The translations under genes were made by a program, and so were the position numbers. 64,000 nt of DNA from a virus. Taxonomy: Duplodnaviria; Caudoviricetes. Where the stretch lies: positions 35,849-99,848 of the IMG/VR virus record IMGVR_UViG_2974730439_000001; one strand, written 5' to 3'. The notes under the pieces were generated by a model. That model saw only the letters and a program-made list of their open reading frames with translations. It ran no database searches and was not told the DNA's origin. Of this stretch, positions 3,433-29,634 are shown one piece after another (position 1 is the stretch's first letter; each line of letters starts with the position of its first letter).

Positions 3433-3708
3433 ATGAAAGAAGAAAAACTTACAAGATTAAAAATTCTAAGAGCAATGTCATATAGACTCTTACATTTCCT
3501 TATAAAGGAAAAAATACTTAGTGTATTCTTAACAGAATGTTTACAGAATCCATATCGTGTATTACTTGTGGATAGAATATACTGTGATACTTTACCAAGT
3601 AATAAAATATATGAATTTGAGTGTTATTTTACATTTGCTAAATCAATTACGTTAACTGAAAGTATATGGTGGAGATATGCATTTAAATACAGGGAGGAGT
3701 ATTTATGA
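3433..3708 (+). CDS. hypothetical protein
   Basis: ORF track; ATGA overlap with the next gene. Confidence 0.75.
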   Translation: MKEEKLTRLKILRAMSYRLLHFLIKEKILSVFLTECLQNPYRVLLVDRIYCDTLPSNKIYEFECYFTFAKSITLTESIWWRYAFKYREEYL

Positions 3709-4879: not shown

Positions 4880-5281
4880 AACCAAACCTTCTTTCTGTTT
4901 TAAATGAACATTAGAGTCTAGTATACTCAGTCTGTGAAGATAGAGTATACGTCCTCAGAAAATGACAAGCATGTGGGGCATAGTAAATACTATAATGGCA
5001 GATTGAATTAGTAAGGCATACGTATGCATATGTAGAACAAACCATTTGATTAAATGTATTTATGATTGTGCGAGACGTTAAAATCATGTACTCCAATAAG
5101 ATTTAGTTTGACAGCTATTTCTGCTTATGAGTTAAAACTATAGTGAGAGTCATAGCGTAAGTAACGATTGTAGTCGTTTATCTTTGTCTTATAACAAATG
5201 CTATAAACTAAGAGTTGGCACTAACTTAATTAAATCCTGAGTGTCCAGGCGTCATTATTAATCAATTTAAACGTTTAAATT

Positions 5282-6489: not shown

Positions 6490-6707
6490 CCCTAAACAAG
6501 TTAGTATGGTGCAGTCAACCCAAAACTACTATTATCAACCAGATCCCTAATGGAAGCTTAGTAACAACTAAGCTACTAAGCAAGAGTACAATGGACTATA
6601 CAACGGTCAACCAGTATCTAATATTGGTCTAAGATGAAGGAAAAGGGTTGCCTATGAATAAGAGATACGAATAAGTAGGATAGTAGTTTTTTAAAGAAAT
6701 TAAAGAA

Positions 6708-6980
6708 ATTGACTGTTAGGTCTATTGAATCATCGTAAGACTTCCGTTCGAGTCGGAAATGCTCCACTAAATTAAAACAAGGAAGTTATTAGGTTTCTTA
6801 GCCGTTAGGTTGCAAGTCCTATAAAAAAGAAACCCTTATCAATGGGGCATACAGGTTTTGATTGCGATAGTGAAGGTAGAATAGGTCAATAAGCAGATAA
6901 CTGGCAATACAAGTTATATTATGAACTATAGCCGTATTGCGGCGTAAGTTCAAACGGCTAAGCTAATGTCGTAGAAAGCT
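6708..6980 (+). ncRNA. ssrA: circularly permuted (two-piece) tmRNA
   Basis: 3'/acceptor piece 6708-6766 (GAC-TTCCG-TTCGAGT-CGGAA-ATGCTCC-A) lies upstream of the 5'/coding piece starting 6844 (GGGGCAT-ACAGGTTTTGA). Acceptor stem has G3:U. Helix 2a TTGCGAT/ATCGTAA. Resume ATAACT|GGC, tag GNTSYIMNYSRIAA* at 6903-6947. Outer ends are approximate. Confidence 0.88.
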
Positions 6981-7043
6981 GGAGCATATCAGGCTAGATC
7001 AGACGTAAGGGCTGTGAAGGGTTCGATTCCCTTCAATGCTACA
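6981..7043 (+). ncRNA. truncated tRNA-like element
   Basis: T-arm GAAGGG-TTCGATT-CCCTTC; imperfect acceptor GGAGCAT/ATGCTAC; no proper anticodon arm. Confidence 0.5.
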
Positions 7044-29618: not shown

Positions 29619-29634
29619 AATAGGTCCTTTATTT
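29602..29634. terminator. bidirectional terminator at the convergent strand switch
   Basis: AAAGGACCTATT-GTGA-AATAGGTCCTTT between convergent genes. Confidence 0.85.

Follow-up and report, generated by a model that had tools for sequence, protein, structure and literature searches.

The tmRNA gene of the phage analysed here has its 3′ end upstream of its 5′ end. Is it a functional, circularly permuted gene whose product works as two pieces, from which tmRNA did it descend, and what does it do for a phage? The window is a 64-kb stretch of a phage genome that is complete at 99,848 bp and has terminal repeats, and all coordinates without a locus name refer to it. The nearest named relatives of the phage are crAss-like phages of Suoliviridae from human faeces, and the carrier of the gene is itself a TAG-recoding crAss-like phage of this family. 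The two-piece tmRNA gene occupies positions 6708–6982 of the + strand, and with a trailing element the whole region corresponds to 6708–7043. No sizeable ORF lies across the tmRNA region, even when TAG is taken as a sense codon. As a whole, the best explanation of the sequence data, and one we consider highly probable, is a functional ssrA gene, circularly permuted, in a TAG-recoding Suoliviridae phage.

Anatomy and conservation of the permuted gene

The features of the region are as follows.

6708–6766, + strand: acceptor piece, with the 3′ strands of helix 2, the T arm, the 3′ acceptor strand and the discriminator
6708–6713 (P2c), 6721–6725 (P2b) and 6732–6738 (P2a), + strand: 3′ strands of helix 2, in the acceptor piece
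6742–6758, + strand: T arm, in the acceptor piece
6759–6765 and A6766, + strand: 3′ acceptor strand and discriminator
6767–6843, + strand: spacer of 77 nt between the pieces, expected to be excised
6844–6982, + strand: coding piece, from the 5′ acceptor strand through the tail hairpin
6844–6850, + strand: 5′ acceptor strand, pairing with 6759–6765, with G3 opposite U70
6851–6861, + strand: D-loop analogue, in the coding piece, replacing the D arm
6862–6868 (P2a), 6876–6880 (P2b) and 6885–6890 (P2c), + strand: 5′ strands of helix 2, in the coding piece
6891–6902, + strand: linker of 12 nt from P2c to the resume codon
6903–6944, with stop codon 6945–6947, + strand: tag ORF, starting at the resume codon GGC 6903
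6923–6951, + strand: tag-end hairpin with the stop codon inside, GAAC/GTTC (6923–6926/6948–6951) and an inner 4-bp stem
6961–6980, + strand: conserved tail hairpin of the coding piece, whose tail is nearly invariant
6983–7043, + strand: trailing tRNA-like stub of 61 nt, with its own 5-bp acceptor stem, a T arm at 7017–7033, and then A-C-A

C6767 directly follows A6766, and no CCA is encoded. The predicted mature RNAs are about 62 and 139 nt. When the two predicted pieces were folded together with RNAcofold, the same architecture was obtained, including P2a, P2b and P2c, at −57.6 kcal/mol.

A preliminary description, made from the sequence of the window, had proposed a permuted two-piece tmRNA with a 7-bp acceptor stem and a helix 2. 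Every sequence element that it named is present at the positions given there. For the tag end, comparison supports the hairpin GAAC/GTTC plus the inner 4-bp stem. A different tag-end hairpin (6931–6936/6954–6959) was dropped, as its 3′ strand is invariant although its 5′ strand changes. The replacement covaries only partly, in a gappy alignment. The register of a 3-bp helix closing the mRNA-like part (around 6893–6897/6978–6981) is ambiguous. The asymmetric internal loop between P2b and P2c (6714–6720 opposite 6881–6884) is invariant even in a divergent sub-lineage. Pairing of the loop nucleotides 6714–6720 with the tail motif is unsupported, since one sub-family alters the tail without a matching change.

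ARAGORN and the Rfam models of permuted tmRNA had been named as checks of this proposal. ARAGORN calls a permuted tmRNA (3′ tRNA-like half at 6731–6767, 5′ half at 6844–6869, tag GNTSYIMNYSRIAA*), with the same domains and tag as proposed. The Rfam result is divided: RF04321 (tmRNA_permuted) aligns end to end at 6709–6947, but the score of the window copy, 37.5 bits (E 6e-6), falls below the gathering score of 47 bits. Scores above this cut-off, 50.3–56.5 bits, are seen in seven relatives (L001, L005, L011, L015, L016, L046 and L078). The match to RF00023 in the window is restricted to the T arm. Of the models for the known two-piece lineages (alpha RF01849, beta RF01850 and cyano RF01851), only beta_tmRNA is among the matches listed, with 19.6 bits against a gathering score of 84, and it covers the tRNA-like part alone.

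Homologues were collected with two scans. An exact motif, the 5′ block of the acceptor piece, was scanned against IMG/VR and gave more than 114 stretches, almost all on gut contigs of 50–135 kb. A scan with the tail motif added 44 loci, and the total is about 160 related loci in IMG/VR and GenBank. ARAGORN overlooks 46 of the 115 copies in one set and 41 of the 45 in the second, where it detects the remaining 4.

The acceptor stem is paired at all seven positions across the permutation in 109 of the 109 genes with an uninterrupted 3′ strand. Seven compensatory variants of the stem are seen, and the alanine determinant G3:U70, which had been pointed out in the window, is kept in every one of them. 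The covariation score, computed over 63 distinct sequences, is 0.209; shuffles give 0.099 (0 of 500 reach the observed value) and slid partners at most 0.073. Twelve rows in which the acceptor stem appeared unpaired are one-column shifts of the MAFFT alignment; they are paired in the structure-guided count. In the T stem pairing is 100%, and each of its five pairs shows double changes; P2a shows them at five pairs too. P2b and P2c do not vary in the first set, as the motif used for the search held both constant. In the second set P2b covaries (AATGA/TCATT), and P2c is seen in two alternative versions.

The tag of the window is GNTSYIMNYSRIAA*, encoded at 6903–6947; its resume codon is GGC (Gly), and it ends in hydrophobic, Ala-rich residues. 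In 115 genes the frame stays at 13–14 codons, through a 3-nt indel. The stop codon is TGA in 77 genes, TAA in 38 and TAG in none. Variable sites at the three codon positions number 6, 4 and 10, the third positions varying most. The common core of the tags is Y/F-V-T/M-D-Y-T-R-L/I-A/V-A. A second, divergent sub-lineage (L262, L267, L291 and about 30 others) has an Asp resume codon (GAC) and the tag DKSFVTDYTRIAA. The tags of some relatives end in VA, TA or SA, which may or may not serve as degrons.

Loss of the pairing and of the tag frame in homologues had been set out in advance as evidence against a permuted tmRNA; both are kept. As far as sequence can tell, the match is far beyond chance and the gene is under selection as a two-piece tmRNA, and comparison of the homologues shows two RNAs joined by the acceptor stem and the helices P2a, P2b and P2c.

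The RNA is as compact as first described, with little room for pseudoknots. All four of PK1–PK4 are absent, only 12–13 nt lie between P2c and the resume codon, and downstream of the tag there are two small hairpins and no pseudoknot. PK1–PK4 are typical of tmRNA but not universal, and pseudoknot 1 matters in E. coli tmRNA. Organellar tmRNA genes are far shorter, some plastid genes being about 65 bp (PMC11915505). Given such short genes, the missing pseudoknots can be treated as a variant trait, which need not exclude the RNA from the tmRNA class.

Descent from Bacteroidota tmRNA and relation to known two-piece forms

One genome per prokaryote species was searched with a 14-mer that takes in the D-loop analogue and the beginning of P2a. 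The tmRNA genes matched by the 14-mer are from Bacteroidota only, and all of them are one-piece, as had been stated in advance for Bacteroides ssrA. Their resume codon is GGC, the same Bacteroidota-type Gly codon that had been recognized in the window, and their tags (such as GENNYALAA, GNNNFALAA and GETSYAFAA) start with G-E or G-N. Many phage copies and Bacteroidales genes have nearly the same sequence in the T arm and in the segment leading up to it. A host motif near the 3′ strand of helix 2, ending GTAGAAAGC, recurs in the tail of the phage coding piece. Host genes, the phage acceptor piece and the tRNA genes of the phage itself all end in A-C without a full CCA.

The one-piece Bacteroidota tmRNAs (for example those of the Bacteroidales genomes L137, L160, L175, L194 and L196) thus share with the phage gene the D-loop-analogue motif, the T arm, the GTAGAAAGC tail motif, the GGC resume codon, the G-N/E start of the tag and its AA end. 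The host gene is colinear, 370–400 nt long, with four pseudoknots and a tag of 9–10 residues, whereas the phage gene is permuted, with about 200 nt of mature RNA, no pseudoknots and a tag of 13–14 residues. Judged by the positions of the shared signatures, the permutation break has the tail motif on one side and what remains of the 3′ strand of helix 2 on the other. No phage-type gene was found among 401 sampled Bacteroidales genomes. Judging from these signatures, the gene is derived from a Bacteroidota one-piece tmRNA and has lost all four pseudoknots; the claim of descent rests on the shared signatures, as the shared RNA is too short for a tree.

The two-piece tmRNAs of alphaproteobacteria, a betaproteobacterial lineage, cyanobacteria and marine phages have the same permuted order, with the acceptor piece first. 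In the known two-piece tmRNAs the pieces are paired together, as comparison shows for the phage RNA, and the precursor is cut by tRNA-processing enzymes, as is predicted for it. The alpha and beta genes differ from the crAss-like family in other respects. They score 150–175 bits on RF04321 (150 bits for a Rhizobium gene and 175 bits for a Rhodocyclaceae two-piece gene, both with Ala resume codons) against 37–56 bits in the crAss-like family. Their tags are of the AND type, and about 45–55 nt separate helix 2 from the resume codon, against 12 in the phage. The marine phage genes (Melnitz, pelagiphages, cyanophages) group with the lineages of their hosts, whereas the crAss-like gene has Bacteroidota signatures. 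Since the signatures are of the Bacteroidota type and not alpha, beta or cyanobacterial, the two-piece form most likely has an origin separate from the permutations of these three lineages. The independent permutation proposed in the preliminary description is therefore probable.

The same description knew of no phage case, and here it was mistaken. Two-piece tmRNAs of marine phages are published: in one survey, 53 of the 133 unique phage tmRNAs have the two-piece form, and nearly all of these come from phages of marine or aquatic origin (PMC9004378). In addition, sister genes are labelled in RefSeq. Three Suoliviridae genomes, cr114_1 (NC_055897), cr125_1 (NC_055900) and cr52_1 (NC_055888), carry tmRNA features that agree with the window copy in the order of the pieces, the type of tag and the tRNA-like element behind them, at 76–80% DNA identity over the locus; these records give a feature line only. 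Matching DNA without tmRNA annotation is present in cr53_1, cr4_1, cr113_1, cr109_1 and cr6_1, and both pieces were confirmed in cr53_1 and cr4_1. In the literature searched, no paper linking tmRNA to crAss-like phages was found beyond tool names, and tmRNA is not mentioned in Yutin 2021. No published account was found of the crAss-like family, its Bacteroidota descent, the pseudoknot loss, the trailing tRNA or the combination of intron and permutation.

Two-piece tmRNA had previously been a matter of three bacterial lineages, some organelles, and marine phages grouping with those lineages. A separate, phage-only origin would add a natural minimal tmRNA of about 200 nt, which could reveal what trans-translation needs, and a clean case of the origin and processing of a permuted RNA gene.

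Trailing element, proposed maturation and insertions

A tRNA-like element is located 3′ of the tail in 100 of 100 genes, and its own acceptor stem covaries. At nine loci of the second sub-lineage, ARAGORN calls this element tRNA-Ile(GAU), with a full cloverleaf and an A1-U72 pair. At other loci its anticodon loop is of 6 or 9 nt. The stub in the window has an acceptor stem and a T arm, without D or anticodon arm. A weak match to the mascRNA model is seen at 7010–7040. The junction of the element with the tmRNA tail is conserved, on which ground the element is read as a tRNA-Ile kept for RNase P cleavage, even after decay. It probably marks the RNase P cut that sets the 3′ end of the coding piece. 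The stub of the window would then be a decayed form of the tRNA-Ile-like cloverleaf. Alternatively, the stub could be what decay has left of the 3′ end of a one-piece ancestor. One point in favour of this is the colinear alignment of the host tmRNA profile with the tail and the stub T arm, but the cloverleaf versions in relatives make a decayed tRNA-Ile the likelier source.

tRNA-like elements are known as 3′-end processing signals from mitochondrial tRNA punctuation and from MALAT1 mascRNA, where an acceptor/T-arm mimic likewise lies directly 3′ of a functional RNA. The crAss-like element differs from these in that it seems to be derived from a tRNA-Ile gene and not to be a dedicated signal, and its cleavage is predicted.

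Under the proposed maturation, transcription of the + strand in the early, RNA-rich region would yield a single precursor. RNase P would cut 5′ of G6844, as in any tmRNA, and again 5′ of the trailing tRNA-like element (6982/6983), which would generate the 3′ end of the coding piece. The tRNA 3′-end enzymes would trim after A6766/C6767, and the CCA-adding enzyme would finish the end. Host tmRNA and the phage's own tRNAs need this addition as well. No conservation is seen in the sequence 5′ of the acceptor piece. At L005:1290–1356 and about 35 other loci, a compact motif, missing from the window, ends 3–4 nt before the tmRNA gene. It has an 11-bp hairpin with strong covariation, and its loop TTTGGTC is complementary to an invariant GACCA 5′ of the stem, giving a pseudoknot-like fold. 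No Rfam match to it was found in L005 at E 0.01. It could be a processing element or a ribozyme that makes the 5′ end of the acceptor piece.

The position of the stub raises another reading of the locus: a one-piece tmRNA at 6844–7043, closed by the downstream T arm and 7035–7041, with the upstream acceptor piece as a leftover. The stub sits where the 3′ end of a one-piece gene is expected, the Bacteroidota tmRNA profile is colinear across the tail and the downstream T arm (E 6e-4), and the downstream 3′ strand of the window could pair with 6844–6850 at six of seven positions. This strand, however, does not change along with the tmRNA's 5′ strand: in L005 the latter differs although the stub is the same, and in 100 genes the downstream strand covaries with its own local 5′ strand. 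Together with the tRNA-Ile-like cloverleaf of the element in other phages and the invariable pairing of the upstream acceptor strand across the permutation, this leaves the one-piece gene scarcely credible; closure through the downstream T arm is contradicted by the covariation. A second doubt concerns activity. The locus might be a relic, decaying or not translated, for instance a captured host fragment, the remains of an attachment site, or a tRNA-like decoy that blocks host trans-translation and adds no tag. Fragments of tmRNA are common in phages, tagging by an RNA without pseudoknots could be inefficient, and a tag-less tmRNA-like RNA of mycobacteriophage DS6A is reported to inhibit host tmRNA (cited in PMC11915505). 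But two sub-lineages and about 160 loci retain the whole tRNA-like domain and helix 2 as well as the resume context and the tag frame. The changes are compensatory and preserve the frame, with a stop always in frame and never TAG, and nothing similar was found in the 401 sampled Bacteroidales genomes. A relic is thus improbable, and a functional two-piece tmRNA is the preferred reading.

The spacer is a landing site between the gene halves, and its length in relatives ranges from 15 to about 900 nt. In the window, the intervening segment of 77 nt contains a stem of its own, as had been described: an acceptor/T-arm-like mini-hairpin (6792–6798/6828–6834, inner 6806–6809/6818–6821). This mini-hairpin covaries among the window, cr114_1 and cr125_1, and one compensatory change distinguishes the window from L001 and L002. 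The spacer of cr114_1 (L001) contains a full tRNA-His(GUG) at 3597–3669. That of MT835588 (L004; 1812–2387), an 87% identical contig and the closest relative of the window, contains a gene for a 191-aa endonuclease (phrog_3322) on the opposite strand. The commonest type of spacer (93 nt; L016:5010–5100 and others) opens with a perfect hairpin of T-arm type, and the 7-mer after it matches the 3′ acceptor strand of another sub-family exactly. The arrangement resembles a second, decayed acceptor half and is possibly a trace of the duplication behind the permutation.

Insertions are also seen in the T arm. The T loop is interrupted at two different sites in seven loci of the first set (L006, L025, L066, L082, L100, L105 and L111), and the T arm is similarly interrupted in at least five loci of the second set, including L268, L282, L288 and L292. 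The insert of cr4_1 (L006) at 1510–2330 matches the group I intron model RF00028 with 75 bits, and the intron region has an HNH endonuclease ORF on the opposite strand. The genes with interrupted T loops are permuted and intron-bearing at once. In a published table of tmRNA forms, permuted genes and intron genes are separate classes, and no class that combines the two was seen there (PMC11915505). The intron-form genes listed there have a group I intron in the T loop, like cr4_1 (L006), L025 and L066, but the crAss-like intron lies in a gene that is permuted as well. The window's own copy is without an intron.

TAG recoding, possible function and genomic surroundings

In the late genes of the window genome, TAG is a sense codon. 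When it is read so, ORF coverage rises from 0.2–0.5 to 0.9–1.0, and the late genes on the minus strand at 29633–56447 have 4–80 in-frame TAGs per gene. A late-protein homologue contains 2–13 in-frame TAGs in 36 of the 36 complete tmRNA-bearing genomes tested; all of these belong to one clade, and the figure describes co-occurrence and not independent contrasts. No suppressor tRNA was found in the phage genome by ARAGORN, even at low thresholds or with introns allowed, where the matches looked like noise. The tRNAs that ARAGORN reports there are tRNA-Leu(UAA), twice, and tRNA-Arg(UCU), none with a CUA anticodon. Among the about 160 related early-region loci, tRNA(CUA) is present in one (L097).

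No SmpB gene was found in the phage genome, and the RNA must therefore use SmpB, AlaRS and EF-Tu of the host. Such dependence would fit its host-like tRNA-like domain. Host AlaRS would charge the RNA via G3:U70, and host SmpB and EF-Tu would carry it to ribosomes that have stalled on mRNA that is broken or lacks a stop. Translation would then resume at GGC 6903, adding A-GNTSYIMNYSRIAA, a degradation-type tag. The likely benefit would be free ribosomes during infection.

One plausible reason for a tmRNA in such a phage is that, once TAG is reread as sense, ribosomes would run off messages ending in TAG. The preliminary description had suggested that the RNA may rescue ribosomes during the TAG code switch or after host defences that cleave tRNA or mRNA; what the comparison offers on these roles is the co-occurrence with TAG recoding. 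The TAG co-occurrence fits a tmRNA that clears ribosomes reading through TAG stops. A working tmRNA whose purpose is unconnected with the code switch comes close to an even chance, without quite reaching it. It departs from the best explanation in the selective benefit alone, nothing found speaks directly against it, and the co-occurrence is compatible with it too. No recoding of stops is known from the marine phages that have two-piece tmRNA, and for their tmRNAs the same ideas have been put forward (PMC9004378). The gene moreover has tRNAs and ribozymes as neighbours in the early region. Recycling of ribosomes in general, while host RNA is being broken down, is as good an explanation as clearing after TAG readthrough. 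The most far-reaching combination, in which the gene is a fourth origin of bacterial type that occurred in a virus, a required companion of the amber switch, and cut by RNase P at a tRNA-Ile relic, is rather doubtful. If it were true, host messages and early phage messages ending in TAG would lose ribosomes off their ends, and the minimal tmRNA of the phage would clear them. With TAG recoding in every genome tested, the family offers a testable link between stop-codon reassignment and ribosome rescue, in phages that are among the most abundant viruses of the human gut.

The early region contains tRNAs and ribozymes beside the tmRNA gene. Two Hatchet ribozymes are located at 2775–2898 (103.5 bits) and 4951–5089 (69.6 bits). 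A RAGATH-9 RNA (RF03146, 158 bits) at 6511–6690 ends 18 nt 5′ of the acceptor piece. RAGATH-9 adjoins the acceptor piece, at about 18–26 nt, in the window, L002, L004, L030, L046 and L078, and it is 0.3–1.9 kb upstream in L001, L003, L013, L015, L016, L018, L019 and L062. As an obligate 5′ partner of the tmRNA it was rejected, since the distance varies among relatives, up to 1.9 kb. RAGATH-9 is a neighbour within the same RNA-rich early region and no fixed part of the tmRNA gene. In relatives, RAGATH-6, RAGATH-7, RAGATH-7-associated and RAGATH-20 RNAs are also close by. The cluster of structured RNAs, tRNAs and ribozymes in the early region is possibly one multi-RNA precursor.
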